DNA of 64,000 bases from a virus, in the IMG/VR virus record IMGVR_UViG_3300034782_000062, positions 1 through 64,000 of that record; one strand, written 5' to 3'. How positions within the stretch are numbered: position 1 is the first letter of the stretch; each line of letters opens with the position of its first letter. This document shows, one piece after another, positions 44,456-64,000 of the stretch. The notes beneath the pieces are model-generated. The model searched no databases. It saw only the letters and a program-made list of their open reading frames with translations, and was not told the DNA's origin. Position numbers and translations under genes: made by a program.

Positions 44456-44665
44456 CTATCCCTGACGGCAGCGCTGCAGGCGCAACTGTGCTGCTCGATG
44501 CTCCAGCGTCGCCAAATGCAACTCATGTTCTCGCAAACGCAATTCTTCTTCGTATGATGCACAAAGCGAAACAGCTCTAGCGGGCGGCACGGGGGCATGT
44601 GTTCTCACACGAGTAGGTGCTGCTGCACCTAGCCCACCCTGCACCCTCTGATACTCGTAAGACAT
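44456..44665 (-). CDS. Small MSYEY-GGLG leader protein
   Basis: AAGGAGGAG SD, ATG 44665; coiled-coil tail. Confidence 0.65.
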   Translation of the reverse strand: MSYEYQRVQGGLGAAAPTRVRTHAPVPPARAVSLCASYEEELRLREHELHLATLEHRAAQLRLQRCRQG

Positions 44666-44675
44666 GCTCTCCTCC

Positions 44676-45179
44676 TTAATCGATTGCGCCTTCTTCACGC
44701 AAACGTTCTTTCTGCTTGTAGCCGATGTAGAGTCCGACAGCGAAAGGAACGAGACCAGAGCCTCCAACGTAACGACCGCTGCCCTGACTCACACTTTCGA
44801 GGCCAGCAGAGACGATGGTCAGCACGATGCCCGCGCCAATACCAGCAAGACCGCCGTAGATGGCACCCTTCTTCGCCGCCTCCTTCTTGTATCCCTTCGC
44901 TCCGGTAATCGCTGCACCAGCAGCTCCGAGCGCGAACGGCATGGCAATTCCAATCACGACGATCCCAAGCAGGAGAAGAGCGAGTGCCCCGACGCCAGCT
45001 CCGATGGCAAGAGCCCTCGTTCCGTTGTCTGCAGGAGCTGGAACGCCCGTATCAACAAAAGCCTGATCTTCGAGCTGCAAACCAGGAACGGTAACTGCCA
45101 CCGGCTCAGCGCCGTTGCCATTTGTACCAAGTCCGAATCCCATCATCGACTCGTAAGTCGCTGGAGTGTACTCGTACAT
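44676..45179 (-). CDS. MYEY-GFGLGTNG leader multi-TM protein
   Basis: Leader plus 3-4 Gly/Ala-rich hydrophobic helices. Confidence 0.75.
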   Translation of the reverse strand: MYEYTPATYESMMGFGLGTNGNGAEPVAVTVPGLQLEDQAFVDTGVPAPADNGTRALAIGAGVGALALLLLGIVVIGIAMPFALGAAGAAITGAKGYKKEAAKKGAIYGGLAGIGAGIVLTIVSAGLESVSQGSGRYVGGSGLVPFAVGLYIGYKQKERLREEGAID

Positions 45180-45188
45180 CGTCCCCTC

Positions 45189-45548
45189 CTACGCCCTTGC
45201 GCGAGAAGCAAGACGCTGCGCTCGATCCAGCTCGTAGCTTGCCCTCAGCTCTCGCTCCCATTGCTTCTGTTGCCAAATCCCGACGACCGCACCTGCACCA
45301 GATGGAATAGCAAACGTTCGCAACCAGAACAGGACCCCACTCATCGGAACAATCGCCTGAGCGGCTTGTGCCAGCGCAACAGCAGCGACGCCGCCCTCAA
45401 TGACGGCGTACTTGCGGTCCATTGGAGAAACGATGGCAGCAGCAGCTCCGCCGAGCGCGAACTGCGCCAGGACAAGTCCGAAGTTCCCCATCGAGGTCTC
45501 CGGTTGCCCCATCCCAACAGCTTCTTCCCAATATCCCAGCATCGCCAA
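45189..45548 (-). CDS. Small three-TM protein (GMG near N-terminus)
   Basis: GGAG SD; hydrophobic helices. Confidence 0.7.
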   Translation of the reverse strand: MAMLGYWEEAVGMGQPETSMGNFGLVLAQFALGGAAAAIVSPMDRKYAVIEGGVAAVALAQAAQAIVPMSGVLFWLRTFAIPSGAGAVVGIWQQKQWERELRASYELDRAQRLASRARA

Positions 45549-45554
45549 TCTCCT

Positions 45555-45896
45555 TTATGACTTTTGAACGACGTCAAACACCTTGTGGGTGCCGCCCTTG
45601 AAGTTCTCCACCTGTTTTATGTCGCGCAGGTGCCCAATGATCCTAACGCGGTATGCCTTATGAGGACTTGTGGCGTAAGAGAATCGATAGCTTTGTGTCG
45701 AGCCCACGTAACAGTTGATATCGAGACGACCTACAACACGAGGCATAATCCCCGGATACCACTCGTCCAGCTCGGCCTGAAGCTCCCGGTTTGGAGCACG
45801 CTGCCCGCACGGTGCTACACGAAGAGTGACACTCCCACCAGACTGACCACCAGCAGCGCCACCCATCGAGCTTTTTGTTGTGTACTCGTAGCTCAT
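45555..45896 (-). CDS. MSYEY-leader soluble protein
   Basis: ATG 45896; SSMGG after the leader. Confidence 0.65.
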   Translation of the reverse strand: MSYEYTTKSSMGGAAGGQSGGSVTLRVAPCGQRAPNRELQAELDEWYPGIMPRVVGRLDINCYVGSTQSYRFSYATSPHKAYRVRIIGHLRDIKQVENFKGGTHKVFDVVQKS

Positions 45897-45897
45897 A

Positions 45898-46650: not shown

Positions 46651-46652
46651 GT

Positions 46653-47057
46653 CTACTCCATCTCCGACTCGAAGGTACCGAATCTTTCGTCCTGAGGACG
46701 ATTATCAAGTCTGGTTGTCAGCCAGAGAAGTGCCGTCGGAACGACGATCGCTAACCCAACGCACAGCCATGGATTGATCGGTGTCTGGGTGCTCACCTCG
46801 GAAACAATTTCACCCATTGCGAGAGAGCCTGTTCCAACATACTTCGCCCTTGGTGGAAGACTGTGGCCCGAGGTATCTGGGGCTTCGCCGAGAGCGCTTC
46901 CGAGCGCTGGCGAAAAAGGCGGCGGCGGGACTTCCTCACCGTACTTGGGACGATCAGGCTCTGGAGCCTGATAGTATTTGTACTTCCCGGTCGTCCAATC
47001 CCAAACGCTGTACATTCCATTGGTCGCGATCGCGCCGTAATTAACTCCGGGCCTCAC
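46653..47057 (-). CDS. C-terminally anchored membrane protein (YSVWD..YKYY)
   Basis: Pro-rich middle, terminal TM. Confidence 0.65.
   Translation of the reverse strand: MRPGVNYGAIATNGMYSVWDWTTGKYKYYQAPEPDRPKYGEEVPPPPFSPALGSALGEAPDTSGHSLPPRAKYVGTGSLAMGEIVSEVSTQTPINPWLCVGLAIVVPTALLWLTTRLDNRPQDERFGTFESEME
46688..46700. repeat. Palindromic motif (CGTCCTGAGGACG)
   Basis: Perfect match, near a gene junction. Confidence 0.8.
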
Positions 47058-47350
47058 AGCTCCTCCACCTCCTCCTGCTTAGACTTGTGCAAGAGGTACG
47101 CCCCAATGAGCACCATCGCCGGAACAGATGCCCACATCCATGGGCGCATCTGCTCGATCATCATTTGCGTCTGCAATTGCGCAACACGGGCTTGCTCTTC
47201 TTGTCGAATAGCCTGTTGCCTCTGTTGCTCCAGCCTCTCCCTCTCTCCCTCGGACACTGAACGCGATATGGCATAGCCAGCCCATCCCGTACCAACAACC
47301 AACGGAACGCCATACAACAGAGCAGGGACCCACCATGGATTTGGCTGCAT
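47054..47350 (-). CDS. Two-TM protein with a Gln-rich coiled linker
   Basis: Paralog of 47351-47623. Confidence 0.65.
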   Translation of the reverse strand: MQPNPWWVPALLYGVPLVVGTGWAGYAISRSVSEGERERLEQQRQQAIRQEEQARVAQLQTQMMIEQMRPWMWASVPAMVLIGAYLLHKSKQEEVEEL

Positions 47351-47623
47351 CTATCGCTCTCTCTTCCTTAGGATAAAATACATCCCCAGGATGGCTGTCG
47401 CTGGGATTGCGATCATCCCCATCGGAACGAGCAGCCCGTACATTGCTTGCGACTGAGCCGCCGCTGCACGTCGTCGCTGCTCCTCAATCTGCTGCTGCTG
47501 GTCCTGAACTTCCGTCGTTCCGTTCTGTTGAAACGCACCAAAGGCCATACCGGCAAAAATCAACGAACCACCGATGAGGATCGGATAGGCAGCAGCAGCA
47601 ATTGGTCCGAAGTTTCGCTCCAT
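47351..47623 (-). CDS. Two-TM protein with a Gln-rich coiled linker
   Basis: ATG 47623 (TGATG coupling). Confidence 0.65.
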   Translation of the reverse strand: MERNFGPIAAAAYPILIGGSLIFAGMAFGAFQQNGTTEVQDQQQQIEEQRRRAAAAQSQAMYGLLVPMGMIAIPATAILGMYFILRKRER

Positions 47624-48297
47624 CACGACCTCTTCTTGAACTTCCATGCGGCGTAAAGCATGAACATGGCCGCTGCAGAGGTCCCAATCACAAGAGCCCA
47701 TGGGAGCTGAATGCCAAGATCGAATCCACCTCCTGGTCCGGCCGGTACAAGAGTTCCGGCCATCCTCTGAGCATCAGCCGCAGAGAACCCCATCCGAAAG
47801 AGAGTCGCTTGATCCGGGGTCCCTGTCTGCGGAATACCACCGCGCGCTTGGGATGCCCGAATAGCCGCTGCGAATGACGTTGCTTCCCCAACACCATCAA
47901 TCGGACCCGGATCAATACCCATTGAGCAAAGACGCGATTGAATATCCCAAATGACCCGTGAACGAGACGTCGTCAGGCTGTTCCTGTCGACGCGATGGGA
48001 CTGACACGTCGCTACCGAAGGCTCTATCCGCCCACCAGCCTGAGTAGGACATGCCAGGAAAGGACGAGGCCAGTGGGGTGGACAGCACCACGTCGAACCA
48101 GCCACTCCCTCAACCGAACACGTCTGCCCTCTGGCAGAAGGAACGCATCCCCCCTCACGAGCACACGCCCCTGCATCTGCCGTATTCTCGAAGCATCGAG
48201 TGACACCCCCTCCAACAACTTCTGAGCAGGGGGGGTTACCAGAAATATCCGTCCAGCCGGGGCCGACGAGCCCGAGCCCTGTCGAGTACTCGTACAT
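47623..48297 (-). CDS. MYEY-GLG leader, six-Cys CCP domain, PG-binding domain, TM
   Basis: WCCPP; DIQSRLCSMGIDPGPIDG; TM followed by KFKKRS. Confidence 0.75.
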   Translation of the reverse strand: MYEYSTGLGLVGPGWTDISGNPPCSEVVGGGVTRCFENTADAGACAREGGCVPSARGQTCSVEGVAGSTWCCPPHWPRPFLACPTQAGGRIEPSVATCQSHRVDRNSLTTSRSRVIWDIQSRLCSMGIDPGPIDGVGEATSFAAAIRASQARGGIPQTGTPDQATLFRMGFSAADAQRMAGTLVPAGPGGGFDLGIQLPWALVIGTSAAAMFMLYAAWKFKKRS

Positions 48298-48950
48298 CAG
48301 CCCATCTCCTCTGAGAACAGCATGCGCTCTTCTCGCTTCCGGTCGAAGTAGCGCTTGCCGAGATAAGCCGCCGTCCCCAGGATGCCTACAGCAACCCAAA
48401 CCTTTGGATCGGACAGAATCTTTCCGATGCCAGTGATCGGCGTCGTCGTGATCCTCGCTGTCGGTGTCGATCCTTCAGGAGGAAGCTCTTTCGTCGGAGA
48501 CTGAACAGGCGGCTGCGTAGTCGTAGGAGGTTCCACCGTCGGAAGACCGGGAATCTCGGGCGGCAAAGGGAGCTGTGCCTCCTCCTCACGAATCTGAGCG
48601 GCCTCCGGAGTCTCGGGATCGGCCCGCGGTGTTCCACTCGGGCAGCAAAAGCAAAAACCGGGGTTACCAGAAGCAGTCTCACAGCGCTTCGGCTCATCTC
48701 CGGTGAGAAACGTCTGCATATTCTGAACGCAGCCGTAGAGGTTGGCGACGTTGAGGTCTGGAGGATAAACTTCACCAGCGTTCTGTGGATCCTCCATGAA
48801 GCAAACTTCGTCCGGAGGATACTGTCTTCCTACGTCATCCGTCGTACACATACACTGAGGACGACCAAAGAGCGGGGCCAAATCCCAACTGCTCATCACA
48901 GACCAGCCGAGAGCACCGAGACCGCCAGGTCTTCTGTTGTACTCGTACAT
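48297..48950 (-). CDS. MYEY-GGLGALG leader, CCP domain, Pro/Thr linker, TM
   Basis: FCCPSG; TM followed by KRYFDRKREE. Confidence 0.75.
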   Translation of the reverse strand: MYEYNRRPGGLGALGWSVMSSWDLAPLFGRPQCMCTTDDVGRQYPPDEVCFMEDPQNAGEVYPPDLNVANLYGCVQNMQTFLTGDEPKRCETASGNPGFCFCCPSGTPRADPETPEAAQIREEEAQLPLPPEIPGLPTVEPPTTTQPPVQSPTKELPPEGSTPTARITTTPITGIGKILSDPKVWVAVGILGTAAYLGKRYFDRKREERMLFSEEMG

Positions 48951-49402
48951 CAGATGTGCCCCTCTCTCTTCAAATACCGATACCCAAACCAGCCGCCGAC
49001 CCCGAGAGCCAACAACGCCACGACCGGACCAAACATCGAGGCAGATGCCACCTGCGGCAAAGCTGGAGGCTGAGGAGAAGTAGGCACTGGCTGAGGCTGC
49101 GGTTGCGGTTCTGGCTCTACCGGAGCTGGCTCGGCGGGCTGCACTGGGAAGTCTGGGAATCCAGGAGGACAGCACCAGACGGCACCAGCATTATTCTCCG
49201 CGGTGTTGCAAGGCCACCCAATTCGCTCACAAGCTCTGTCATAAGCGAACTGGTATTCATCCGGCTCCACGAAACAGTATTGATTCCCCCCTGGAAACTC
49301 CAAGCACTGCTTCTGTGTCCTCTCTCCGCTGAAGATCTGACCGAACGTTGGAGGTTCATTGACCTGCGACCAGCCCATCCCTCTGGGGTTGTATTCGTAC
49401 AT
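48950..49402 (-). CDS. MYEY-GMG leader, CCP domain, Pro linker, TM
   Basis: WCCPPG. Confidence 0.8.
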   Translation of the reverse strand: MYEYNPRGMGWSQVNEPPTFGQIFSGERTQKQCLEFPGGNQYCFVEPDEYQFAYDRACERIGWPCNTAENNAGAVWCCPPGFPDFPVQPAEPAPVEPEPQPQPQPVPTSPQPPALPQVASASMFGPVVALLALGVGGWFGYRYLKREGHI

Positions 49403-49405
49403 GGA

Positions 49406-49843
49406 TCAGAACTCCTCTTCGAGTTCCAGCTCTTCTCGCTTCGCCTCGTACTCCTTGTAGCCAAAAAAGGCGATGCCAGCGAGACCAAGTGCTCCAAGCC
49501 AGAACCACCACCGGCTCGATGACTGCTGAAACCATCGACCGATACCCGGTGGCGCAGGCGGCGCAGGCGGCGTCTGACCCGGTTCCAGAGGAGGCGACCC
49601 CGGTGGACGCGGCCAACCAGGAGGACAGCACCAGACGAGACCCGGGTTTCCAGCCGGTGAGGTGCTGCAAGGCTGATTGATCGGAGCGCACCCCTGAGCA
49701 CGAGCGAAATCTTGCTCGGGCGGCTGACCATCAACGGTCGTCGTTCGAAAACAGCGCTGCTCGTAGCCCGGATAGTCAGGACACATCGGATGACCGACGA
49801 CGTCCGACCAACCGAGGCCGTACATCTGCCTAAAACCGCCCAT
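49406..49843 (-). CDS. MYGLG leader, CCP domain, Pro linker, TM
   Basis: WCCPPGWPRP; acidic tail. Confidence 0.8.
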   Translation of the reverse strand: MGGFRQMYGLGWSDVVGHPMCPDYPGYEQRCFRTTTVDGQPPEQDFARAQGCAPINQPCSTSPAGNPGLVWCCPPGWPRPPGSPPLEPGQTPPAPPAPPGIGRWFQQSSSRWWFWLGALGLAGIAFFGYKEYEAKREELELEEEF

Positions 49844-50762
49844 AGCGCTCCTCCTCGAACTCGAACTCTTCTTCCTTCTTTCGAGTCATGTAGGCACCAA
49901 GGACGATGATCCCCAGAAGACCAAAGCCTGCAGCAGCCCACGGGACCCAGGATGGAAGTCCGGTTGTCGGAATCGAAGGCCCCATCGACGCGGTTTGAAC
50001 TCGCGGCGGTTGCTGCGCGACGCTGGGAGGCACAGGTAGCGGAGAAAACGATGGCTTCACTACGGTAGCGACACCCGTCGGGAACGTCGTTGGTGTAGTC
50101 GTAACGGGAGGAGGGCCGGATGGAACGGTCATCCTCTGAGCGACAGTCGGGAACTGCTGAACGACCTGTTGCCAGCTCTGGCGAGCAGCAAGGCATCGGA
50201 CGCCGGCCTCGGTCTCATCGCCCCATCGACCATCGACCCCATAGCGGGGGAGAGTACATCCAGCAGCAATGACTGCGTTCTGCACTGCCTCTACCTGAGG
50301 GTCGGGCGGCAAAACAGTGCGAGCAATCCTTCTTCCAGCGGCAGCAACATTCTCCGCAAATCTCGTCAGAAGACCCTCTGCCTCTACGATTTCTTCGGCC
50401 GTGGGCGCCGGAAGTCGATTCATTTCTTCAGGGCTCAGAGCTTCTGCAAAGGTCAAGTAGTAATCACAGTCACCGGGGATATTAGGAGGACTCATCACGT
50501 TGCAATATGTTGCAACTTCAAAATTGCTGCATGGGGCGCCGCCTGAATCTACTCGACACGCCTCTGCTGCCGTAAATAGTCGTCGACATTCCGTAAAGTC
50601 AGTGCCGATCCTGTCAGGGGCGAGGTTAAAACAGACGTCTCTGGCTTGTCCCCGAGAGAGAACACCTGTCTGAACGTCGCGAAGGAGATCGGCTCCATCA
50701 CGGCCTTCGCCGTTTGTGCCCAAAGCGCCAAGCCCACCAGGTGTTCTTCGGTATTCGTACAT
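49830..50762 (-). CDS. MYEY-GGLGALGTNG leader, Cys-rich helical domain, PG-binding domain, TM
   Basis: AVQNAVIAAGCTLPRYGVDGRWGDETEAGVRCL. Confidence 0.8.
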   Translation of the reverse strand: MYEYRRTPGGLGALGTNGEGRDGADLLRDVQTGVLSRGQARDVCFNLAPDRIGTDFTECRRLFTAAEACRVDSGGAPCSNFEVATYCNVMSPPNIPGDCDYYLTFAEALSPEEMNRLPAPTAEEIVEAEGLLTRFAENVAAAGRRIARTVLPPDPQVEAVQNAVIAAGCTLPRYGVDGRWGDETEAGVRCLAARQSWQQVVQQFPTVAQRMTVPSGPPPVTTTPTTFPTGVATVVKPSFSPLPVPPSVAQQPPRVQTASMGPSIPTTGLPSWVPWAAAGFGLLGIIVLGAYMTRKKEEEFEFEEERYGRF

Positions 50763-50780
50763 TTTAAATGTTTAACCTCT

Positions 50781-51464
50781 TTAATAGGCGCCTGTCGGTG
50801 CCTCGACCCAGCGTGCCTCTCTCTCTTCAATGTCCACGTCGCCGACACCTCGGCCGCTCATCAGGTACTGCATCAAGATGAAAAGACCGATACCACCAAC
50901 ACCCACTGCCAAAATGGTCCAAGTTGCGTTCCACTCAGAACGGGCCGGTGTAGGCTGAATCGGCTGCGAGGGTTGCGTTGCGACTGGCGCTGCTGCCGCT
51001 ACAGGCCGTGGACGAAATTCCTCCGGCACCTCCACCAAAGAAAGCACAACAGGATATCGCCCAACGATACTTCCCCATCCGACAGCCTGCGCCAAACAGT
51101 TGATCCCGGAACGCGTTTCGGACCCGAAGAGACCATCTGCGCCGTAGGTCGGCAGCCTACAGCCTGCTCGAAGAATAGCCATCTGAAGCTCGCGCACCTT
51201 GTCACGTCGAGGGCAGCAGTAGTACGCACCAGCGTCTGTGGCGTCTGGCTGAGCGCAATAGGGCTCACCACCAACCTGCACTCCAACACAAGCCCGACTG
51301 TCTGCTCGACCCTCCTGCCCGGAAGGAACGCAGGCGACCTCGCCATCAGCCATCGGGAAGTCGGCACTTCCACGGCATGATTGGCCGATCCAGCTCCATG
51401 CCCCATTGGAACCGAGTGCCCCAAGGCTCATCAAAGGCCGACGTGTTCTTGTCCGCATATACAT
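50781..51464 (-). CDS. LGALGSNG leader, CCP domain, PG-binding domain, TM
   Basis: YYCCP; ELQMAILRAGC...GADGLFGSETRSG. Confidence 0.8.
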   Translation of the reverse strand: MYMRTRTRRPLMSLGALGSNGAWSWIGQSCRGSADFPMADGEVACVPSGQEGRADSRACVGVQVGGEPYCAQPDATDAGAYYCCPRRDKVRELQMAILRAGCRLPTYGADGLFGSETRSGINCLAQAVGWGSIVGRYPVVLSLVEVPEEFRPRPVAAAAPVATQPSQPIQPTPARSEWNATWTILAVGVGGIGLFILMQYLMSGRGVGDVDIEEREARWVEAPTGAY

Positions 51465-51472
51465 GTCACACC

Positions 51473-51811
51473 TCACACAACGAAGGGAACGAGCGAGAAC
51501 GCTCTACCAATACCGTCCGCATAGGCGAACGTCGGCCCAATCGCCGGCCATGGGGCCAGCATATTCGGGTACATCGGCTCACTTCTAAGCTTGTTGTAAA
51601 GAGCAAAGCCGACGGCACCAACCGCCATCGCAAGAGCGACCTTTACCCAAAAATTGAACCGAGTCGCCTGATCCGTCACCATAGACGCCGTCTGCGTGAC
51701 CTGGTCTCCGTTCGTTCCCATTCCCTGAGGAAGGAGAGGTCGAGCAGGATTGTAGGGAACGAGGGTGCTCAGAGGAGAGAGCTGTCGACCCTTCGTCGTG
51801 TAGATGTACAT
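51473..51811 (-). CDS. MYIY...GMGTNG leader small TM protein
   Basis: TGATG coupling at 51809-51813. Confidence 0.65.
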   Translation of the reverse strand: MYIYTTKGRQLSPLSTLVPYNPARPLLPQGMGTNGDQVTQTASMVTDQATRFNFWVKVALAMAVGAVGFALYNKLRSEPMYPNMLAPWPAIGPTFAYADGIGRAFSLVPFVV

Positions 51812-52293: not shown

Positions 52294-52712
52294 CAGAATT
52301 GACCTCTTCTTTCTCGCTCCTCTTCCATTTTTGCTGTGACATAGGAGCCGATCATGATGATGCCGACGAGACCGACACCGGCAGCGGCCCATGGAAGCCA
52401 TGCTGGAGTCTGACCGTTTCCTGTGACTCGGGGAACGACAGAGGCGACCTGCTGCGCCACTCCCTGTTGTTGGGGAATTGTCATCCTCTGAGCGACCCAG
52501 GGCCAGCTCTGGAGAACGAAATCCCAACCGCGGCGCTCCGCGAGACAACGAGTACCCGCCTCGGTCTCTGAGCCCCATCGGCTGTCGCGGCCAAACCGCG
52601 GAAGAGAACAGCCGTTTTCGAGTATGGCACTCTGAATGGAACCAACCTGCTCCTCAGGCTCTGTTCCCAGGCCCATCATGCCCCGACGACTTCTGGTGGT
52701 GTACTCGTACAT
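52293..52712 (-). CDS. MYEY-MMGLG leader, PG-binding domain, TM
   Basis: SIQSAILENGCSLPRFGRDSRWGSETEAGTRCL. Confidence 0.8.
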   Translation of the reverse strand: MYEYTTRSRRGMMGLGTEPEEQVGSIQSAILENGCSLPRFGRDSRWGSETEAGTRCLAERRGWDFVLQSWPWVAQRMTIPQQQGVAQQVASVVPRVTGNGQTPAWLPWAAAGVGLVGIIMIGSYVTAKMEEERERRGQF

Positions 52713-52721
52713 GACGACCTC

Positions 52722-53519
52722 CTAATATCCGAGCGCGGCCAGCTCAGCCTCTTCCAGCTCGGCTTCTTCTTCCTCGCCCCTCTTGTAGAGGTAGTATCCG
52801 CCGGCTGCGAGAAGACCAACGCCTCCGAGAATGGCGAGCCAGCCCCACCAAGGCATTCCGCCAGGAACGATGCCAGCCTGCTGAATAGCAGGAGCACCCG
52901 GGGCGCCTGTCGTGGTGGTTGCTGCAGCTCCTCCGCTTGCATAGCGAACGCCGCCCTGTTCAGGGGTCTTCGACCCGGTCGCACCGGGGTCAAAGATCAT
53001 TCCGGATGGACGAGCCGCTCCGGAAGGATCGGCCATCAGTGTGCTGAGGAACGGGAAGCGCCCGGCCACGTTGGTCCAGCTCGTCTGGCCCACTGCGCAT
53101 TCGACACCACTGCGCGTGTTCGGCCCCCAGACACCATCAGCACCCGTTGAGCCGACAGAACAGCCTTGCTGGACAAGCCAGTTCTGCATCTGACGAATCT
53201 GATCACGGCTCACTGCCTGCTGGACGATCGTGCTGGGCTCTCCGGCACCAGGGCGCCCTGGCGGACAGCACCAGGTGTTTCCAGAAGCTCCCGATGATGT
53301 TCGGCAAGCCCCGGTGCCACCTCCCTGCTCAGGATACGTGACCTGGCACCCCTGGCTCACCATGAAGCCCTGTTCGCCGGTAGTAGCACAGGCAATCGTG
53401 CCACCTCCCTCACAAGGGATGCTCCGAGCGATTTCCCGACTCATCGGGATTTCCCAGTTGTACGACCACCCGAGCGCTCCCATGCCCAAACCACCGGGCT
53501 TCCTTACATATTCGTACAT
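52722..53519 (-). CDS. MYEY-GGLGMGALG leader, CCP domain, PG-binding domain, TM
   Basis: WCCPPGRP; QMQNWLVQQGC...GADGVWGPNT. Confidence 0.8.
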   Translation of the reverse strand: MYEYVRKPGGLGMGALGWSYNWEIPMSREIARSIPCEGGGTIACATTGEQGFMVSQGCQVTYPEQGGGTGACRTSSGASGNTWCCPPGRPGAGEPSTIVQQAVSRDQIRQMQNWLVQQGCSVGSTGADGVWGPNTRSGVECAVGQTSWTNVAGRFPFLSTLMADPSGAARPSGMIFDPGATGSKTPEQGGVRYASGGAAATTTTGAPGAPAIQQAGIVPGGMPWWGWLAILGGVGLLAAGGYYLYKRGEEEEAELEEAELAALGY

Positions 53520-53541
53520 TTTTAGCTCCTACTCTTTGCCC

Positions 53542-54405
53542 TTAGTATCCGAGCGCGGCCAGCTCAGACTCTTCACGCAGCACGTCTTCTTCCTCTCCCT
53601 TTCGGTAAAGGTAAAGACCACCCAGCGCGAGAGCGCCGACGCCTCCGAGCAGGCCCATCCAGCCCCACCAAGGCATGCCACCCGCGACCATTCCGGCCTG
53701 AGTGACCGGTGTTGTCCCCGGTGTGGTTCCAGTGCTTGCCACACGACCACCAGGGATGATGGTCTGGCCCGCAGCAACCTGCTCCGGTGTCTTTGTTCCC
53801 ACAACAGGAGGCTGAAAAACGAAGTCTGCAGGACGCGCCTGTCCGGTTGGAGTCTGCCTCATCGTGGCGACGAAGGGGAAGTTCGCAGCGATCACAGTCG
53901 CGTTCCCCTGAGCCTCAGCACACCGAACGGCCGTCGCTGTATCAGGACCCCAGATTCCATCGATGCCGTGTGTGCCGACAGAACAGTTGATGGACTCCAG
54001 CCACTGCTGAAGCTCACGAATGTCAGCACGGGACGCTCCAGCCTGAGTCACAGCCGCGCCCTCACCCGGCGTTGCACGGGGGCGACCAGGAGGACAACAC
54101 CAGACCAAGCCAGCGTTTGCCTCCGTCGTTGGACCTGTACCCGTGAAGCAAATTCGAGTGGAACCGCCCAGTTCGGTGTCGAGGTTCATGGGCCTGCAGC
54201 CTTCATTGGCCATGAAGGTGCTTTCTGCTGTTCGACCACAGGTCACGGTCCCTGAGCCATCCGGCGTTTGACACGAAGGGCCACGGAATGTCTGACCAAA
54301 TGAGGTAAAGGTGGGCATCCAGCCCAAACCGCCCGGGACGGGAACGTATTCGTGGCTGTTCTTCGAAGCGCCCAAACCGCCCGGCCTTCTTACGTACTCG
54401 TACAT
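53542..54405 (-). CDS. Duplicated leader (MYEY..GGLG / HEY..GGLG), CCP domain, PG-binding domain, TM
   Basis: Close paralog of 52722-53519 with the same ELAALGY C-terminus. Confidence 0.8.
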   Translation of the reverse strand: MYEYVRRPGGLGASKNSHEYVPVPGGLGWMPTFTSFGQTFRGPSCQTPDGSGTVTCGRTAESTFMANEGCRPMNLDTELGGSTRICFTGTGPTTEANAGLVWCCPPGRPRATPGEGAAVTQAGASRADIRELQQWLESINCSVGTHGIDGIWGPDTATAVRCAEAQGNATVIAANFPFVATMRQTPTGQARPADFVFQPPVVGTKTPEQVAAGQTIIPGGRVASTGTTPGTTPVTQAGMVAGGMPWWGWMGLLGGVGALALGGLYLYRKGEEEDVLREESELAALGY

Positions 54406-54409
54406 GGTT

Positions 54410-54676
54410 TCACTCTCCTCTTCTCTTCGTGAGGTAGTAAGAAAGGCCCAGCGCAGCCACCGCGCCGAGGCCAAACCAGAACAGACCCGACGACGTAAAT
54501 GGGCCTGATACATTCGTCGTTGCTTGCACAGGTGGCTGAGAAGGGATCGCCTGGCTCTGAGCCTGAATCTGCTGCGCCCCTTGCTGGACCTGTGATGCAG
54601 TTTCCATGGCCTGTGCCACGATGAAGTCAGTGATCTGGTCGATGTTCTCCGCCGTCTGTTGGAAGTTGTTCGACAT
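54410..54676 (-). CDS. Small Gln-rich C-terminally anchored membrane protein
   Basis: ATG 54676; TM LFWFGLGAVAALGL. Confidence 0.65.
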   Translation of the reverse strand: MSNNFQQTAENIDQITDFIVAQAMETASQVQQGAQQIQAQSQAIPSQPPVQATTNVSGPFTSSGLFWFGLGAVAALGLSYYLTKRRGE

Positions 54677-54678
54677 GA

Positions 54679-55050
54679 TCAATCCTTCGTCAGAAAAACT
54701 GTTATCGCCAAGACCGACGTCACAATGCTCGCACCTATGGCGATCTTCATGAGGCGCTGTGCACGTTCCAGCTCGGCTCGCGTTTCCTGAGCCTCCTGCA
54801 CCAGCTCCTGAGGCCGCTGCTGAAGCCAGCTCATCCACTCGCTGACGTTGAGCCCTGAGGACTCAGTACCCCCATCAGTCCCGAGCGCCGAGGTCACAGC
54901 ATACTGACGCTCACCCATGTGCCTCGGGTAGACCCACATCCGCCTACCAGAAACTGGGTTGATGAGCAGGTAGTAATCGCCAGGCTTCACGTGCGGCCTG
55001 ACAAAATACATCGGGACGCTGACTGGTTTTCGTGCAAGCTTCGATGCCAT
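54679..55050 (-). CDS. C-terminally anchored membrane protein
   Basis: ALGTDG; terminal TM. Start 55050 or 55011. Confidence 0.6.
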   Translation of the reverse strand: MASKLARKPVSVPMYFVRPHVKPGDYYLLINPVSGRRMWVYPRHMGERQYAVTSALGTDGGTESSGLNVSEWMSWLQQRPQELVQEAQETRAELERAQRLMKIAIGASIVTSVLAITVFLTKD

Positions 55051-55059
55051 CGGCTGCTC

Positions 55060-55527
55060 CTACTCTTCTTCTCGATACTTCTTGATGAGCATCTGAATAC
55101 CAAGAGCTGCAGCCGCCCCCGCACCCAGCCAGAAGAGCTTGGCGCCGAACGTTGTTCCCTGCTGAGCAGGCGCCTCCGTGGTGCCCATGCTCGGCCCCTC
55201 CAGGACGATGCCGTAGGAGGACGACCCCGGATAGAGCGGACGACCCGGACGTCTGAGCATATTCCACTGCATGTCCGGTGCAGCAACCTCGTAGTCATAT
55301 CGAGCATAGTCATCGAAGAAAATGCCAGTGTTGCTCGGCGGTTCAGTGTCGCCGCTGAAGATCCCGTTGTCTTCGCCCTCGTAGCCGAAGATTCCGCTTC
55401 CGATCACCTTCGGGAGTCGGCCAGTCGGCGCGGCACCGTTGATGACATTGACGCCCTTGAATCCAAGGCGCTGGCGGTACCTTTCCTCACGGGGCGGAGC
55501 TTTTACGATGCTCTTTGGTGGTGCCAT
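55060..55527 (-). CDS. C-terminally anchored membrane protein with three GIF motifs
   Basis: SGIFG, NGIFS, TGIFF; TM LFWLGAGAAAALGI. Confidence 0.65.
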   Translation of the reverse strand: MAPPKSIVKAPPREERYRQRLGFKGVNVINGAAPTGRLPKVIGSGIFGYEGEDNGIFSGDTEPPSNTGIFFDDYARYDYEVAAPDMQWNMLRRPGRPLYPGSSSYGIVLEGPSMGTTEAPAQQGTTFGAKLFWLGAGAAAALGIQMLIKKYREEE

Positions 55528-55535
55528 TGTTCCCT

Positions 55536-56069
55536 CTAATCCTTTTTCCGAGTCAGCAGCCAAATGCCAACGATCCCGAACGTCAGCACCAAGCCCCCTA
55601 TCACGATGTAGGGGACATATGACCTCTGTGGCTGAACCACGAGGGGAGCCGCAGTCGATGTTGGAGAAGGCGTTTCTTCTGACGCCGCCTCTCCCTCATC
55701 CGCTGAAGCTGTCGTTGACTGAGCTGGTGCAGGAGTTGTCGTCGTTGGAGCGCCCTTTCCGCTGGGCGCTGGAGCTGCCCCAGTCGGCGTTGCGCCGCTT
55801 GGCTGCTTTCCACCGGGCGCTCCAGTTGAAGACCCCGTAACCTCAGTCGCCGTATTGCTCGCAAACTGCTGAGCGAGCCCGGAGAACAGATTAGCGATCC
55901 CCGAGTAGATGCTTGTATCGCCCGAAGACTCCCTACCACCCTGAAGCTCTGGCGGCATCGGACGAAGACCCATTCCAGCGGACACCAGATCCTCTGGCGT
56001 CGCGAAATCCATGTCTGGGTTATCGATGTCGCCGTTCGTCCCCAGGCCAGTCATATACTCGTAAGACAT
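55536..56069 (-). CDS. MSYEY-MTGLGTNG leader, Thr/Pro/Ala stalk, TM
   Basis: Shares its TM with 56070-56732. Confidence 0.75.
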   Translation of the reverse strand: MSYEYMTGLGTNGDIDNPDMDFATPEDLVSAGMGLRPMPPELQGGRESSGDTSIYSGIANLFSGLAQQFASNTATEVTGSSTGAPGGKQPSGATPTGAAPAPSGKGAPTTTTPAPAQSTTASADEGEAASEETPSPTSTAAPLVVQPQRSYVPYIVIGGLVLTFGIVGIWLLTRKKD

Positions 56070-56732
56070 CTACTTTTTCCTCACGAGCAACCAAATACCG
56101 ACACCAGCGAAACCGAAGACAAGCAGCCCTCCGACGATGTAAGGAGCGATCGTTGACCCGACAGAAGGCATAGGAGCTGTTACAGCAGCGGGCGAAGGAC
56201 CAGGAGGAGGAAGGGTTTCCGTGGCTGCTGCAGCACCCGCGCCGGGAACCATCACCTGACCTGTGAGGTTGGCCGCGGTTTCCATGGCAACGCCCTGTGC
56301 CTCTTGATTTGCCTGACCCCCGATACCAAGTTTCGTTGCGACCGTCTCAAACATCGCACCGACGTCGGTAGGCCACCACGTCTGCTTTTCTGCTGTTGGG
56401 GCCGGTTCACCTGCTGCTGTTGCCGGAGCACCAGTAGTAGGGCACGAAGCCCCTACCAAGCGCTCATATTGTGAAAAAGCTGGGTCGCTGGAAAATCGAG
56501 AACGAAATCCATCGAGAACGCGACGCGCCTCATCACATCGATTCGCACGAGCAAGAGCCTGTGCTCGACGTAGAGCGTAGTTCTGAGGAGTTGCCGGGTC
56601 TTCGCGCTCCGCTTGTTCCAGAAGACGAATTGCTTCTGAGTAGTTCCCTGAATCGTAAGCGGTGCGTGCCTGCGCAGAGAGTCTTTCCGCCTCCTCGACG
56701 GTCCCCATCCCGGTCATATATTCGTAAGTCAT
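56070..56732 (-). CDS. MTYEY-MTGMG leader, TPR domain, stalk, TM
   Basis: ARTAYDSGNYSEAIRLLEQA...AQALARANRCDEARRVL. Confidence 0.75.
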   Translation of the reverse strand: MTYEYMTGMGTVEEAERLSAQARTAYDSGNYSEAIRLLEQAEREDPATPQNYALRRAQALARANRCDEARRVLDGFRSRFSSDPAFSQYERLVGASCPTTGAPATAAGEPAPTAEKQTWWPTDVGAMFETVATKLGIGGQANQEAQGVAMETAANLTGQVMVPGAGAAAATETLPPPGPSPAAVTAPMPSVGSTIAPYIVGGLLVFGFAGVGIWLLVRKK

Positions 56733-56740
56733 GATTCTAC

Positions 56741-57370
56741 CTAGTCTTTCTTCCTTATGACCAGCCAAACAAGGAAGGTTCCGAGGCCGATCGCCGTCGA
56801 GGCCAGTGTGATATGGGTCTGGTATCGCTCTATCCAGGTCTGTTCTTCGGCAGCTTGCTGGCCGGCAGAGTCCGGAGGAGTCTCCTCAATAGGGAGAACC
56901 TCGTTCTCGGCGGCTGCGCCTGTACGAAGAGCCGCTTCCTGTGCATACGTCGCAAAGCCCTGGGCAGTGGGCTTGTTTGCGCCTGTGCCACCTGGCATAG
57001 GGGCCGCTGGAACCTGTTGACCTGTAGGCATACCAATGGCTCCCTTGACCCAATCGACGATACCCCCTGTATCCTGAGATGGGGCAGCCCCTGGCTGAGC
57101 CGCTACGGTCGACTCTTCTTCTTCTCTGACAGCTTCGCCGAGGATAAGAGTAGGAGTGGATGGACAGCAGTAATGCTGACACGCCTCGTTCAGCCTTCCG
57201 ACCTGACCAGTGTCACTGGGTATCTCAACACAGCTCATTCGACTGGCGGTGGATGCCTCTCTCGGCCTGAAACAACGTTTCTGACCCGTCACAGAGCCCT
57301 GCGTACAAGCTCCTCTTGGGTCCGAAAATCCGAGAGAACCCAAGCCAGGACCGTAGTAATGATAGGACAT
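56741..57370 (-). CDS. MSYHY-GLGSLG leader, CCP domain, stalk, TM
   Basis: HYCCPS. Confidence 0.75.
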   Translation of the reverse strand: MSYHYYGPGLGSLGFSDPRGACTQGSVTGQKRCFRPREASTASRMSCVEIPSDTGQVGRLNEACQHYCCPSTPTLILGEAVREEEESTVAAQPGAAPSQDTGGIVDWVKGAIGMPTGQQVPAAPMPGGTGANKPTAQGFATYAQEAALRTGAAAENEVLPIEETPPDSAGQQAAEEQTWIERYQTHITLASTAIGLGTFLVWLVIRKKD

Positions 57371-57378
57371 CGTTTACC

Positions 57379-57870
57379 TTAATCCTTCATCTTGGAGACG
57401 AGCCACACGCCGCCGATGACAACCCCTGTCACTCCGACTCCAACGACAGCCCAGACCCACATGGGAGTAGGCCGACTCCCTCCAAATGTTCCACCGACGC
57501 GGGCTTGAGCCTCGCGAGCGAACGCAGCCGCTTGTTCACGGCTGATCTCTTCAGCAAGTTCCCGCTCCTGTGCGGAATACTCACTCGCGATGCCTCTACG
57601 AGCCTCGTTGATAGCATCACGCTCAGCGTTCGCTCTTTCATCGAAATACTGTTGCCTTGCCATGTCGTCGAGCATCGACGACATTCCGGATTCGCGCCCC
57701 TCAGCGTAGGCACCCTGCTGGTAACGAATCTGGTCGATGGTGTTGATCGCACCAAAGATCGCACCGACCGTACTTCCAACAGCGCCAGCGGCTGCACTGG
57801 CGTAGTCTCCGGCCGTCGTTCCCATGCCGACATCGCCCCCATCAGGGGCACCTACGAAGACGAAGCTCAT
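57379..57870 (-). CDS. GMG leader, coiled coil, TM
   Basis: DVGMGTT; amphipathic helix; TM. Confidence 0.7.
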   Translation of the reverse strand: MSFVFVGAPDGGDVGMGTTAGDYASAAAGAVGSTVGAIFGAINTIDQIRYQQGAYAEGRESGMSSMLDDMARQQYFDERANAERDAINEARRGIASEYSAQERELAEEISREQAAAFAREAQARVGGTFGGSRPTPMWVWAVVGVGVTGVVIGGVWLVSKMKD

Positions 57871-57879
57871 CGAAGCCGC

Positions 57880-58770
57880 CTACTCCTCTTCGTCTTTCTT
57901 CTTGGACATGTACCAGAACACGCCACCGACGCCGCCTGCGAGAACGAGCGCGAGAAAAATCCAAACGACCGGTGAGGTACCCTGCTGAGTGACGATCGGA
58001 GCCGCTGTCGTTGACGGCGCAGACGACACAGCAGCTTCCGTCTCACGAAGAGCCCGAAGCTCTTCTGCACGCTGCGACAGCTCCTCAAGACGAAGCTCAT
58101 GCTCCTGCTGACGGGCGAGCTGCTCGGTCTGGAACGCCATGTCACGAGCCTCAGACTCAGCTTCCATTTGCTCGCGACGAAGCTGAGCTTCCAGCTCCAT
58201 CTCGGCCTCCGCTCGCTGATGACCCGTGACCGTTGTGGCGATACCGACTCCCAGCTCAGAGAGCGGAGCCAGGATAGAGCCGATGCCTTCCATGATTCCG
58301 CCAGCTCGTGATCCGTTGGTACCCATCCCCATGTCGCCGTCGTTGCCCATGCCGCCGCCATACAATCCGCTCGGGCCGATCGAAGGTCCATAGGTGACGT
58401 AAGTGCCAGGCTGCACCCTTCGAGCAGCTCGGCCACCAACATTCACCACTGGAGAACCAGCGGCTCTTTGCGCTGCTTCACCGTTCATGGCGAAGCGGGC
58501 GCCATTCTCCATGTCGTAGTAGTACATCTGCCCACCTTTATCTCCATTGCCCCTTCGAATTGGAGCTGATTCCGCACCAAGAGTCGCAGCCTGTTGAAAC
58601 CTCGGCCGCTGAGGCACAACGCGGCGAACGGGGCGGCGGGGTGCCTGAACATGCGGAGCAGCACTCACATCTTCTTCGACGGTGCCGACGTATTCAACAT
58701 CGTCATCGTTTCCATTTCCGTTTGCTCCGTAGCTTGTCATGTCTTCATCAAGAGCATCCCACTCGCTCAT
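57880..58770 (-). CDS. Membrane protein with internal GMGN/GMGTNG, coiled coil and TM
   Basis: First gene after the transglutaminase-like enzyme; tail KKKDEEE. Confidence 0.7.
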   Translation of the reverse strand: MSEWDALDEDMTSYGANGNGNDDDVEYVGTVEEDVSAAPHVQAPRRPVRRVVPQRPRFQQAATLGAESAPIRRGNGDKGGQMYYYDMENGARFAMNGEAAQRAAGSPVVNVGGRAARRVQPGTYVTYGPSIGPSGLYGGGMGNDGDMGMGTNGSRAGGIMEGIGSILAPLSELGVGIATTVTGHQRAEAEMELEAQLRREQMEAESEARDMAFQTEQLARQQEHELRLEELSQRAEELRALRETEAAVSSAPSTTAAPIVTQQGTSPVVWIFLALVLAGGVGGVFWYMSKKKDEEE

Positions 58771-58787
58771 CGTTTCCTCCGACGTTT

Positions 58788-59423
58788 TCAGTCGCTTGAC
58801 TCATAGATCCTGTATTGCTTGACTCGCTGATGCATCCGCGGGGTTCGAGGTCCAGCGACCGGGTCGACTGTCACCCAACCACCACTCCCCTTCGCCGCCT
58901 GAGCGAAGACATGAGTGAATGGTCCAGGAAGCCTTGGATGCGGTGATGACATCAGACGAAAGGCGGGGTCCTCAAACAGCCTTGGATTCGGCGATTTACC
59001 GTTCGTCGGACGAAATCCGACGGTGACTATTCGACTTCTCCCACCGATTGAACCAATTGAGGCTCTCAAGAACGTAGCAAACTCATCGCAGTCGATGAGC
59101 GTCGAGCCGTAGTTGTCGATCTCCCACAAGATTCGCAGAGGATCCTTGACCTGCTCGACCTTTCGAGGGTCTCGCGTGTACCGGAACTGCGGGCCACATG
59201 TCCAGTAGTAAACCGCAAGGATTTCGCTCCAGTAATCTCGGGGACGAACGTATCGAATGATATCTTCGACTCGCTCACGAAGAGCGAACGACTTCTGACC
59301 GCGCTCACCGTCAGCAATGCGGAACATCTCACGCACTGTTTGCGGAGTTCCGCGGTATTTCATCACATTTACGGTCTGGTTTCCGGCCACCGGCCACACT
59401 CCGGCTTTAAAAATACCTGCCAA
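58788..59423 (-). CDS. Transglutaminase-like (papain-fold) Cys-His-Asp enzyme, candidate maturation protease
   Basis: FRYTRDP, IDCDEFA (Cys), FTHVFAQ (His), WVTVDP (Asp). TTG start as called by the ORF track. Confidence 0.8.
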   Translation of the reverse strand: MAGIFKAGVWPVAGNQTVNVMKYRGTPQTVREMFRIADGERGQKSFALRERVEDIIRYVRPRDYWSEILAVYYWTCGPQFRYTRDPRKVEQVKDPLRILWEIDNYGSTLIDCDEFATFLRASIGSIGGRSRIVTVGFRPTNGKSPNPRLFEDPAFRLMSSPHPRLPGPFTHVFAQAAKGSGGWVTVDPVAGPRTPRMHQRVKQYRIYESSD

Positions 59424-59470
59424 ATTTGACGCCGGGGCCGGCTTATACGTCTGACAGGAGGGTCGCTTTA

Positions 59471-59514
59471 GAAGTACATCATATTAAGTTTAAATGTCAA
59501 GCGTCTTGAGGATG
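59471..59514 (-). promoter_or_regulatory. Promoter TTGACA-N18-TACTTC abutted by the palindrome CGTCTTGAGGATG (59502-59514)
   Basis: Intergenic. Shares ACGCTTGACAT (11 bp) with the 44350 promoter; the -10 is weak. Confidence 0.55.
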
Positions 59515-59527
59515 GACGAAAATTAGG

Positions 59528-63999: not shown

Positions 64000-64000
64000 T

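Follow-up and report, generated by a model that had tools for sequence, protein, structure and literature searches.

Introduction

Why should many otherwise different proteins, encoded one after the other in a viral genome, begin with the same short peptide? The question is raised by a stretch of 64 kb (referred to as the window), which corresponds to the first 64 kb of the 182,770-bp IMG/VR virus record IMGVR_UViG_3300034782_000062 (57% G+C; CheckV completeness 95%). In this window, the gene for a transglutaminase-like enzyme is followed by a cassette of 27 small genes, all arranged on the minus strand from 59423 to 44456, with gaps of at most about 20 nt or with overlapping ends, and GGAG-type ribosome-binding sites precede most of the 28 genes. 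Many of the cassette proteins start with a peptide of the M(S/T)YEY type followed by a G[LM]G motif, the two elements forming what is called here the tag. A previous sequence-only reading of the window had regarded this leader as a dedicated targeting and cleavage signal handled by the enzyme. The results presented below indicate that the stretch very probably represents a module of virion-membrane and structural proteins, in which the start peptide serves as a modular recognition tag. The complete mechanism, in which the tag would direct particle assembly by docking to a common partner and would then be trimmed by the enzyme, is put forward more tentatively, as a preferred explanation that falls short of being probable.

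The start tag and its distribution in the genome

An exact M(S/T)YEY start occurs in the proteins encoded at 44456, 44676, 45555, 47623, 48297, 48950, 49830, 52293, 52722, 53542, 55536 and 56070 (proteins are designated by the lower coordinate of their gene), in full agreement with the sequence-only reading, and the variants it had reported, MSYHY (56741), MYIY (51473), MYMR (50781), MYTR (51811) and MYGLGW (49406), are equally present. Counted as M[ST]?YEY, this start characterizes 12 of the 27 cassette proteins compared to a single one of the 225 other open reading frames (ORFs) (p 2e-12), and it recurs elsewhere in the genome in two ORFs only, at 16984-17658 and in a 54-aa ORF at 138124. 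The second element, G[LM]G within the first 35 residues, is found in 17/27 cassette proteins versus 4/225 other ORFs (Fisher p 4e-16), about 0.6 being expected from composition. The tag opens at the N-terminus with M(S/T)Y(EY), continues with 1 to ~14 spacer residues and closes with G-[LM]-G, after which W, T or A is the usual residue. Protein 53542 carries the leader twice (MYEYVRRPGGLG...HEYVPVPGGLGW), as had been noticed previously.

The Tyr and Glu codons of YEY differ synonymously (TAC/TAT, GAG/GAA), which argues that YEY is conserved at the protein level, and an explanation at the nucleotide level, i.e., a translation signal, was rejected for the same reason. In addition, the tag heads bodies that are unrelated to each other, such as a TPR domain (56070), low-complexity sequences (55536, 44676), Cys-rich domains and peptidoglycan-binding-like domains, and about 18 otherwise different late proteins are tagged in this way.

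Conservation of the tag in related viruses

Relatives among viral contigs were found by an alignment-based scan, a single-sequence scan of these contigs having returned zero relatives. Tag and enzyme co-occur in most of the related viral contigs that offer enough downstream sequence, which bears out the expectation of the sequence-only reading. The tag is present in the loci L001, L010 and L011, whose enzymes are 67-69% identical to that of the window, on fewer genes, and partly in L002 (45%). Across a more distant set of 17 IMG/VR loci (enzyme 30-41% identical), the general form M-S/T-Y-x(2-14)-G-L/M-G was counted in 32 of the 216 ORFs located downstream of the enzyme versus 2 of the 257 located upstream (p 1e-9). 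Most of the 37 metagenomic homologues of the Cys-rich family start with MYEY.. and many possess a second G[LM]G directly before an invariant Trp, according to a layout which comprises MYEY..GGLG, a spacer of 10-40 residues built up from LPPRAxxxNLPP units, and GMG directly before the Trp residue.

The number and the position of the tags also vary. The orthologue group of 56741 has the tag twice in L010 and none in L001, another L010 protein exhibits four tandem units [YF]xRSY[ED]GLG, two or three tandem copies occur in P0133/P0142, the orthologues of 54679 have an internal motif around residue 55, and several proteins devoid of a transmembrane segment (TM) are tagged in L014 and L028. Modules made of the enzyme and an array of tail-anchored proteins were encountered on IMG/VR contigs of 34-298 kb (L014-L030), in many of which the C-terminal tails are extended runs of arginine (..RRRVRRNRRRRSRR) and differ in this from the tails of the window genome, which are of the K/R-plus-acidic type.

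It is very improbable that the tag is a functionless relic of paralogy left by tandem duplication. The genes from 47623 to 54405 are indeed demonstrable paralogues, with BLAST E values down to 1e-86, but the tag is the best-conserved part of proteins with unrelated bodies (TPR, Cys-rich, low-complexity), is kept across viruses whose enzymes are only 30-40% identical, and its gain, loss and multiplication do not follow the body. Such a pattern of conservation largely refutes the relic. Judged from these comparisons, the tag is selected at the protein level, modular and old.

The transglutaminase-fold enzyme

The protein encoded at 58788-59423 had been described as a transglutaminase-like Cys-His-Asp enzyme, and this description is borne out by both its fold matches and its catalytic triad. 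Seventy-six homologues were found, the N-terminus of which begins 8-20 residues further in, and the triad C112 (in a DCD motif), H171 and D187 is invariant across the 30 diverse homologues that were aligned. PF01841 (Transglut_core) was matched by 23 of these 30 homologues (best E 1.4e-11) and PF04473 by one, whereas the BTLCP family was absent from their Pfam matches; the window enzyme itself gave no Pfam match at E 0.01. The whole family comprises 2183 clusters at E 1e-10 or better. Neither a comparison of the enzyme profile with PDB sequences nor a tblastn search of the window enzyme against 50,697 phage records yielded anything useful.

The AlphaFold2 (AF2) model of the enzyme (pLDDT, predicted local distance difference test, 82) most closely matches 3kd4_B (Z 12.7, 145 aligned residues, root-mean-square deviation (rmsd) 3.0), followed by the true transglutaminases (Z 9.3-9.5 overall, e.g., TG3 at 9.5 and FXIII at 9.4), 3isr (9.0), PNGase (8.7), LapG (8.3) and PeiP/PeiW (7.6), and Foldseek returned TgpA, 3isr and 3kd4 as best matches. 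Of these, 3kd4 and 3isr are putative bacterial cysteine proteases. The model settles the predicted fold as that of the transglutaminase type.

Some homologues contain an intein (Hint plus LAGLIDADG endonuclease) inserted directly before the catalytic Cys of the DCD motif, which suggests that this Cys matters; such cases occur in L029 (6616-8076), P0183 and P0171, with the layout ..QID / C...VSN / CDD... A complex predicted for the enzyme with a 40-residue leader scored 0.01, below the mark, a result that counts neither for nor against binding. Some short contigs with homologues of the enzyme or of cassette proteins (P0153; L031-L034) were binned into metagenome-assembled genomes of Planctomycetota, Lentisphaeraceae, Saccharibacteria and Patescibacteria; binning noise is the probable cause, the two bins of the PVC group providing only a weak hint to the host.

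Upstream surroundings of the enzyme gene

In the intergenic gap upstream of the enzyme, a perfect TTGACA occurs at 59495-59500, directly downstream of the palindrome CATCCTCAAGACG (59502-59514), itself a copy of a dispersed palindrome CRTCYTSARGAYG. The promoter previously assigned to 59471-59500 was not retrieved by a sigma-70 scan, in spite of the perfect TTGACA, and the enzyme cannot be considered the head of an isolated operon, since three conserved same-strand genes (59528-64011) sit 104 nt upstream. This trio (63157-64011, 62250-63164 and 59528-62257) keeps the same order in the relatives. Its first product shares its acidic DDEGIF motif with L001, L010 and L011, the second is an acidic low-complexity protein with a marginal match to the PHROG 'head maturation protease' (E 0.004), and the third, which matches neither Pfam nor PHROG, is a putative scaffold-like protein.

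These surroundings bear on the idea that another protease, viral or from the host, cuts the tags, the enzyme being only a conserved neighbour. The late region is rich in unannotated proteins, neighbourhood alone is no proof that the enzyme acts on the tags, and two viral candidates can be named, the protein 62250-63164 and the membrane-anchored protein 34861-35694. The latter has no Pfam or PDB sequence match, however, and the PHROG match of the former is both marginal and located in an acidic low-complexity protein, whereas the enzyme is the only late protein found with a recognisable invariant triad, and the one whose conservation reaches as far as the Salisaeta phage SSIP-1. An independent protease accordingly appears improbable.

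Architecture of the cassette and membrane topology

All credible genes of the window belong to the minus strand, and same-strand genes continue to window position 1 (Table 1). According to an all-against-all BLAST comparison of the cassette with four related loci, two classes of genes can be distinguished. The conserved class, in fixed order and single copy, contains the enzyme, 57880, 57379, 56741, 55060, 54679, 54410, 47054, 46653 and 45898, whereas the expanded class covers the paralogues from 47623 to 54405, which are built up from the tag, a 6-Cys domain in which W-C-C-P is invariant, a peptidoglycan-binding-like domain, a Pro-rich linker and a C-terminal helix. Within the latter, 52722 shares 46% identity with 53542. 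In the conserved class, 57880 has orthologues in L001, L010 and L011, those of 57379 retain E/D-GLG at residues 8-15, and the distant orthologues of 46653 show YGLGDD at about residue 25. Protein 45898-46650 is among the best-conserved of the cassette (56% identity), with counterparts in L012 and L030 and no family match.

Table 1. Features of the late region and of the additional tagged gene, in order of decreasing coordinates (aa, amino acids; PG, peptidoglycan).
Coordinates	Strand	Feature	Remarks
63157..64000 (ends 64011)	(-)	First gene of the upstream trio	N-terminal acidic DDEGIF motif
59528..62257	(-)	Coiled-coil and Pro-rich protein, 909 aa	Directly upstream of the enzyme in relatives too
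59424..59527	(-)	Intergenic gap, 104 nt	TTGACA and palindrome
58788..59423	(-)	Transglutaminase-fold Cys-His-Asp enzyme, 211 aa	No TM, no signal peptide
57880..58770	(-)	Tail-anchored, 296 aa	No N-terminal tag; GMG and GMGTNG inside (residues 140-150)
57379..57870	(-)	Tail-anchored, 163 aa	GMG at residue 15, no YEY
56741..57370	(-)	MSYHY..GLG tag	6-Cys domain; C-terminal TM and RKKD
56070..56732	(-)	MTYEYMTGMG tag	TPR domain (Pfam TPR_19/TPR_14); C-terminal TM and RKK
55536..56069	(-)	MSYEYMTGLGTNG tag	Low-complexity linker; C-terminal TM and RKKD
55060..55563	(-)	Tail-anchored protein	Three GIF motifs; no GLG tag; kept in relatives
54679..55050	(-)	Tail-anchored, 123 aa	ALGTDG where orthologues have ..GGLGTNG / ..AGLG.. 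(~residue 55)
54410..54676	(-)	Tail-anchored, 88 aa	Starts MSNNFQQ; no tag
53542..54405	(-)	Double tag MYEY..GGLG..HEY..GGLGW	Cys-rich domain, PG_binding_1-like domain, TM, acidic tail
52722..53519	(-)	MYEY..GGLGMGALGW tag	Cys-rich, PG_binding_1-like domain, TM, acidic tail
52293..52712	(-)	MYEY..MMGLG tag	PG-binding-like domain, TM
51811..52293	(-)	MYTRARQGLGW tag	6-Cys WCCPPG-type domain, TM
51473..51811	(-)	MYIY.. start	GMGTNG at residue 30; central TM
50781..51464	(-)	MYMR..SLGALGSNG variant tag	Cys-rich domain, PG-binding-like domain, TM
49830..50762	(-)	MYEYRRTPGGLGALGTNG tag	Cys-containing domain, PG-binding-like domain, TM, acidic tail
49406..49825	(-)	MYGLGW minimal tag	6-Cys WCCPPG domain, TM
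48950..49402	(-)	MYEYNPRGMGW tag	6-Cys WCCPPG domain, TM
48297..48950	(-)	MYEYNRRPGGLGALGW tag	Cys-rich domain, Pro-rich linker, TM
47623..48297	(-)	MYEYSTGLG tag	Cys-rich domain, PG_binding_1 above Pfam cut-off, TM
47351..47623	(-)	Two-TM protein, 90 aa	No tag
47054..47350	(-)	Two-TM protein, 98 aa	No tag; kept in relatives
46653..47057	(-)	'SVWDW..GKYKYY' TM protein, 134 aa	Conserved out to L012
45898..46650	(-)	Soluble protein, 250 aa	C-terminus RITSHGIEG; no TM, no tag
45555..45896	(-)	MSYEY start, 113 aa	No G[LM]G, no TM
45189..45548	(-)	119 aa, two TMs	GMG at residue 12
44676..45179	(-)	MYEY..GFGLGTNGNG tag	2-3 TMs
44456..44665	(-)	MSYEYQRVQGGLG protein, 69 aa	No TM
40717..44232	(-)	Core-like protein, 1171 aa	~690-aa polybasic part, TM bundle, acidic repeats EYLEVPMSGMG
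39881..40528	(-)	Candidate major capsid protein, 215 aa	Jelly-roll model; most conserved late protein
16984..17658	(-)	MSYEYSPGFAGL, 224 aa	Only tag-like start in the window outside the cassette; no TM

A C-terminal hydrophobic segment directly followed by K/R occurs in 22/27 cassette proteins, often with an acidic tail behind it, which agrees with the earlier statement that most of them end in a TM with basic residues. Three proteins, 45898, 45555 and 44456, lack any TM and two of them, 45555 and 44456, carry the tag. Also in agreement with the sequence-only reading, which had recognized no Sec, Tat or lipoprotein signal, the first 30 residues are free of hydrophobic segments in all tag-bearing proteins, the tags being polar and Gly-rich. 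The peptidoglycan-binding domains announced by the same reading were retrieved in part, with one PG_binding_1 domain above the Pfam cut-off in 47623 (24.8 bits for a cut-off of 23) and two others below the threshold; at least six paralogues have domains of this likeness. The bodies of the cassette proteins contain even numbers of Cys residues (6, 8 or 10).

Some of these features would suit a topogenic or export signal, by which the tag would bring the N-terminal domains across the host membrane independently of Sec (N-out, C-in). Even Cys numbers and peptidoglycan-binding-like domains usually point to an extracytoplasmic location, K/R residues follow the helix directly, and a classical signal peptide is missing. 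On the other hand, the tag occurs on the TM-less proteins 45555, 44456 and 16984 and on several more in L014 and L028, it can be internal or repeated in tandem, and G[LM]G appears in the acidic repeats of the core-like protein discussed below. Moreover, the helix is situated only ~5-30 residues from the C-terminus, which implies a post-translational, tail-anchored insertion, so that the N-terminal domain would stay on the cytoplasmic side; in a PRD1-type particle, this is the side that faces the capsid and, later on, the cell wall. An export function is quite unlikely for these reasons. From the earlier proposal of a combined targeting and cleavage signal, there remains a leader that is real, selected and associated with the enzyme, while its export component is weakened by the TM-less, internal and tandem tags.

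The core-like protein, the EGIF motif and the capsid candidate

Beyond the cassette, the 1171-aa protein 40717-44232 consists of K/R-rich repeats covering ~690 residues, a bundle of three TM helices with NGNGLV repeats, and acidic repeats. Eight G[LM]G motifs are clustered in its C-terminal part, six of them inside the acidic EYLEVPMSGMG repeats, and its C-terminus reads ..EGIF..EEEGIF. This protein is a candidate for a membrane-tethered, DNA-condensing core protein. Shorter counterparts are located after the cassette in L011, L012 and L029.

A second short motif is made of acidic residues followed by G-I-F. It occurs at the N-terminus of the first trio protein, three times in 55060-55563 and twice in the C-terminus of the 1171-aa protein (40717-40760). 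The acidic GIF motif is conserved in L001, L010, L011, L012 and L029, and adjoins GLG in L011 (EGIFGLGSLG) and in L017.

The candidate major capsid protein 39881-40528 has 43 homologues at 45-88% identity, encoded on metagenome contigs of up to 270 kb. Its AF2 model (pLDDT 75) finds the capsid protein of SPV1 as best fold match (Z 6.8, 128 aligned residues, rmsd 3.9), followed by HHIV-2 (Z 5.5) and HCIV-1 (Z 5.4), all three being membrane-containing archaeal viruses; these values are middling and within the range of common folds. It had no meaningful tblastn match in the 50,697 phage records and could not be aligned with gp45/gp46 of SSIP-1. Together with 38918-39688 and 38228-38914, it forms a series of three consecutive TM-free proteins just downstream of the core-like gene.

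Pfam and PHROG scans covered 30 large proteins and identified glycosyltransferases, methyltransferases, a primase, a helicase, a ParB-methylase and an AAA ATPase. Capsid, portal, terminase and tail families had no match among these 30 proteins, the HK97 capsid protein not having been searched exhaustively. Profiles for Pox_A32, Terminase_6C and Erv1/ALR had no match in the genome, which is weak evidence of absence. Neither a terminase nor an A32-type packaging ATPase was detected in the genome, a packaging ATPase having no match by the Pox_A32 profile or by tblastn with gp40 of SSIP-1. The AAA ATPase (PF00004) at genome position 66372-68078, 2.4 kb past the window end and divergent from the late module, is the only ORF of the genome with a canonical Walker A motif, and its position is kept in L001, L010 and L011. 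Sequence searches of 34861-35694, 35691-37181 and 45898-46650 against the PDB gave nothing useful, and feature and shape searches of the Atlas returned only viral clusters without names.

Kinship with the Salisaeta phage SSIP-1

The icosahedral particle of Salisaeta phage SSIP-1 encloses a membrane and possesses two types of capsid proteins (PMC6356626). When searched with the enzyme of L012, the 50,697 phage records gave a single match, gp34 of SSIP-1, which was also found by the enzyme profile (hmmsearch, E 9e-22) and aligned with the enzyme by hhalign at 98.9% probability, with DCD, HV and DP in register. Based on this homology, the virus is distantly related to SSIP-1. The resemblance extends to the genes located after gp34, which encode small proteins ending in a helix and K/R, four of them with G[LM]G in the first 45 residues. 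SSIP-1 differs, however, by its genome of 44 kb (183 kb here, and up to ~298 kb in relatives), by the C-terminal TM anchor of gp34, which is absent from the window enzyme, and by the lack of an MYEY/MSY start tag, and its other proteins have no BLAST similarity to those of the window genome.

Since gp34 is annotated as a structural component of the virion, in a phage that contains a membrane, a virion-membrane setting is plausible, in keeping with the earlier view of the cassette as a family of virion membrane proteins. We infer an internal membrane from the approximately 22 membrane proteins of the late module, and the modelled capsid candidate suggests that the particle is probably that of a tailless, membrane-containing bacterial virus. 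The data further point to the existence of SSIP-1 relatives with genomes 4-7 times larger than those of any described membrane-containing phage.

Proposed docking and cleavage of the tag

The preferred explanation starts from a module of ~22 membrane proteins, mostly tail-anchored, which are assembled from shuffled parts, i.e., 6-Cys WCCPPG, peptidoglycan-binding-like and TPR domains, a Pro-rich linker, and a C-terminal helix with K/R that is often followed by an acidic tail. The tag would act as a recognition signal for particle assembly, docking the tagged proteins, and the membrane with them, to a common partner. The transglutaminase-fold enzyme would then trim the tag at G[LM]G during maturation, and would likewise cut the core-like protein at the eight G[LM]G of its C-terminal part. 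A docking or cleavage motif fits better than an export signal because the tag is not confined to single N-terminal copies on membrane proteins, being also found internally, in tandem and on proteins without a membrane segment, and because G[LM]G recurs in the core-like protein. Among the possible functions, an assembly tag cut by the enzyme is favoured because the G[LM]G motif, made of small residues, sits at leader/domain boundaries, because it recurs in the core-like protein, and because the triad of the enzyme is invariant. Both the boundary position and the recurrence match the layout of the adenovirus and vaccinia protease sites. By analogy with these systems, and with LapG and the gp21-processed leaders of phage T4, cleavage of the tags by the enzyme 58788-59423 is a real possibility, which we nevertheless hold with reserve.

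Several observations weigh against this explanation. A comparison of 66 G[LMV]G sites from tagged proteins left G-[LMV]-G and the following W/A/T as their sole fixed features, and M/L/I occupies P4 in only ~14/66 sites (~22%), P, R, G and Y being equally common there; because the upstream positions vary, the site is very short for a specific protease. The likeness to the adenovirus consensus, underlined in the sequence-only reading, consequently stands for MTGLG, MTGMG, MMGLG and MSGMG, which fit, and a strict adenovirus-type consensus was rejected on account of the P4 residues. The fold alone suits a protease, a transglutaminase, an amidase or a cell-wall isopeptidase alike, as exemplified by the match to PeiP/PeiW. 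L012 (enzyme 33% identical) and some other relatives possess the enzyme and the tail-anchored array in the absence of the tag. The tandem copies (four in L010, two or three in P0133/P0142) and the terminal EGIF look like multivalent binding motifs. Finally, the capsid type and the internal membrane are deduced from a jelly-roll match of Z 6.8 and one distant SSIP-1 homologue.

The same observations nourish the most serious alternative, which we regard as somewhat unlikely, namely that the tag and the acidic EGIF are short linear docking motifs that bind a common assembly partner and are never cut. The partners would be the jelly-roll capsid proteins or the 909-aa scaffold-like protein, so that membrane and core would be tethered to the shell, and the enzyme would be either a hydrolase of cell-wall peptides or isopeptides acting at entry or exit, in the manner of PeiP/PeiW of archaeal proviruses, or a cross-linker that stabilises the particle. 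Valency is suggested by the two to four tandem tags of the relatives and the eight G[LM]G of the 1171-aa protein, and cutting would be pointless at an EGIF located at the extreme C-terminus of the core-like protein. The variable distance from the N-terminal element to G[LM]G, the variable context upstream of the latter and the enzyme without tag of L012 point in the same direction, as do the fold matches of the enzyme to PeiP/PeiW and true transglutaminases, and the peptidoglycan-binding-like paralogues, at least six in number, indicate a module that deals with the cell wall. Conversely, the position of the motif at leader/domain boundaries and its small residues are typical of viral processing sites, the tag is devoid of the conserved Gln or Lys that the substrate of a transglutaminase cross-linker would need, and the enzyme, lacking both a signal peptide and a TM, would reach the cell wall only as a passenger of the virion.

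Comparison with known maturation systems

Adenain (AVP), the cysteine protease of adenoviruses, possesses a His-Glu-Cys catalytic order and a clan CE fold, whereas the enzyme of the window has a Cys-His-Asp order and a transglutaminase-like fold. As in the proposed mechanism, AVP is a virion cysteine protease that trims many capsid and core precursors at short Gly sites, (M/I/L)XGX/G and (M/I/L)XGG/X, e.g., IVGL/G in pVI (PMC4246237). In contrast to these precursors, the candidate substrates of the present, bacterial virus are for the most part membrane proteins with a tail anchor.

The best analogue for a tag that would be docked and then cut is offered by vaccinia virus, in which the protease I7 cuts the N-terminus of the membrane protein A17 at AG/X, accompanying the release of the D13 scaffold, and core proteins are cut at the same AG/X motif (PMC4213562). 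D13 forms a jelly-roll scaffold lattice. Vaccinia is a eukaryotic virus, however, its protease belongs to an unrelated family, and a single membrane protein is concerned instead of the ~18 tagged proteins considered here as candidate substrates.

The sequence-only reading had known of no protease-plus-leader system in a bacterial virus, a statement that overlooked the capsid-targeting sequences (CTS) of phage T4. These are short N-terminal propeptides shared by unrelated internal proteins, which they direct into the head under assembly before being removed by the prohead protease gp21, ten residues of IPIII being sufficient (PMC9026906). They resemble the tag as short N-terminal peptides common to otherwise unrelated proteins and provide a bacterial-virus precedent for the combination of a leader and a protease, but T4 is a tailed HK97-type phage, and both the protease family and the cleavage motif are different and the targets are soluble.

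With respect to the fold, a parallel is provided by LapG, a protease of the transglutaminase-like Cys-His-Asp type whose cleavage site in LapA, A108/A109-G, is made of small residues (PMC3032545). It shares the fold class and the triad with the enzyme, and similarly cuts in the N-terminal part of its substrate. In contrast, LapG is periplasmic, calcium-dependent, equipped with a signal peptide and dedicated to one giant adhesin, whereas the enzyme departs from BTLCP/LapG proteins by the missing BTLCP match and the absence of an N-terminal hydrophobic segment. PeiP/PeiW, the pseudomurein endoisopeptidases of methanogen proviruses, are virus-encoded and were placed by the fold search in the fold class of the enzyme, but they contain cell-wall-binding repeats, act on pseudomurein and have no detected sequence similarity to the enzyme. 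No published account of the tag, or of a transglutaminase-fold maturation enzyme in bacterial viruses, was found in the literature.

Significance for the biology of membrane-containing bacterial viruses

If the proposed mechanism is correct, transglutaminase-fold enzymes would join the known viral maturation proteases, and the theme of the Gly-site cysteine protease, common to adenoviruses, poxviruses and asfarviruses, would reach the bacterial viruses. As a docking and cleavage code, a single short peptide could account for the way in which very large phages with a membrane bring about 20 membrane proteins, together with a DNA-condensing core protein, into their particles. A broader generalization, which is unlikely as it stands, holds that a Sec-free, two-part address, composed of the N-terminal tag and the C-terminal helix with its basic tail, brings dozens of unrelated proteins together in an internal virion membrane throughout an undescribed assemblage of viruses, the tag then being removed by a transglutaminase-fold cysteine protease of the virion. 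Such an assemblage may consist of large tailless bacterial viruses of 40 to ~300 kb, with an enzyme family of more than 2000 sequence clusters. The pathway would then represent a bacterial counterpart of the poxvirus A17-D13-I7 system and of the AVP-driven maturation of adenoviruses, built on another protease fold.

The combination of MSY..GLG with a gp34-type enzyme would offer a simple sequence marker for recognizing this virus group in metagenomes. SSIP-1, which is cultured and has both the enzyme and G[LM]G-bearing proteins, makes the question of docking and cleavage directly testable.

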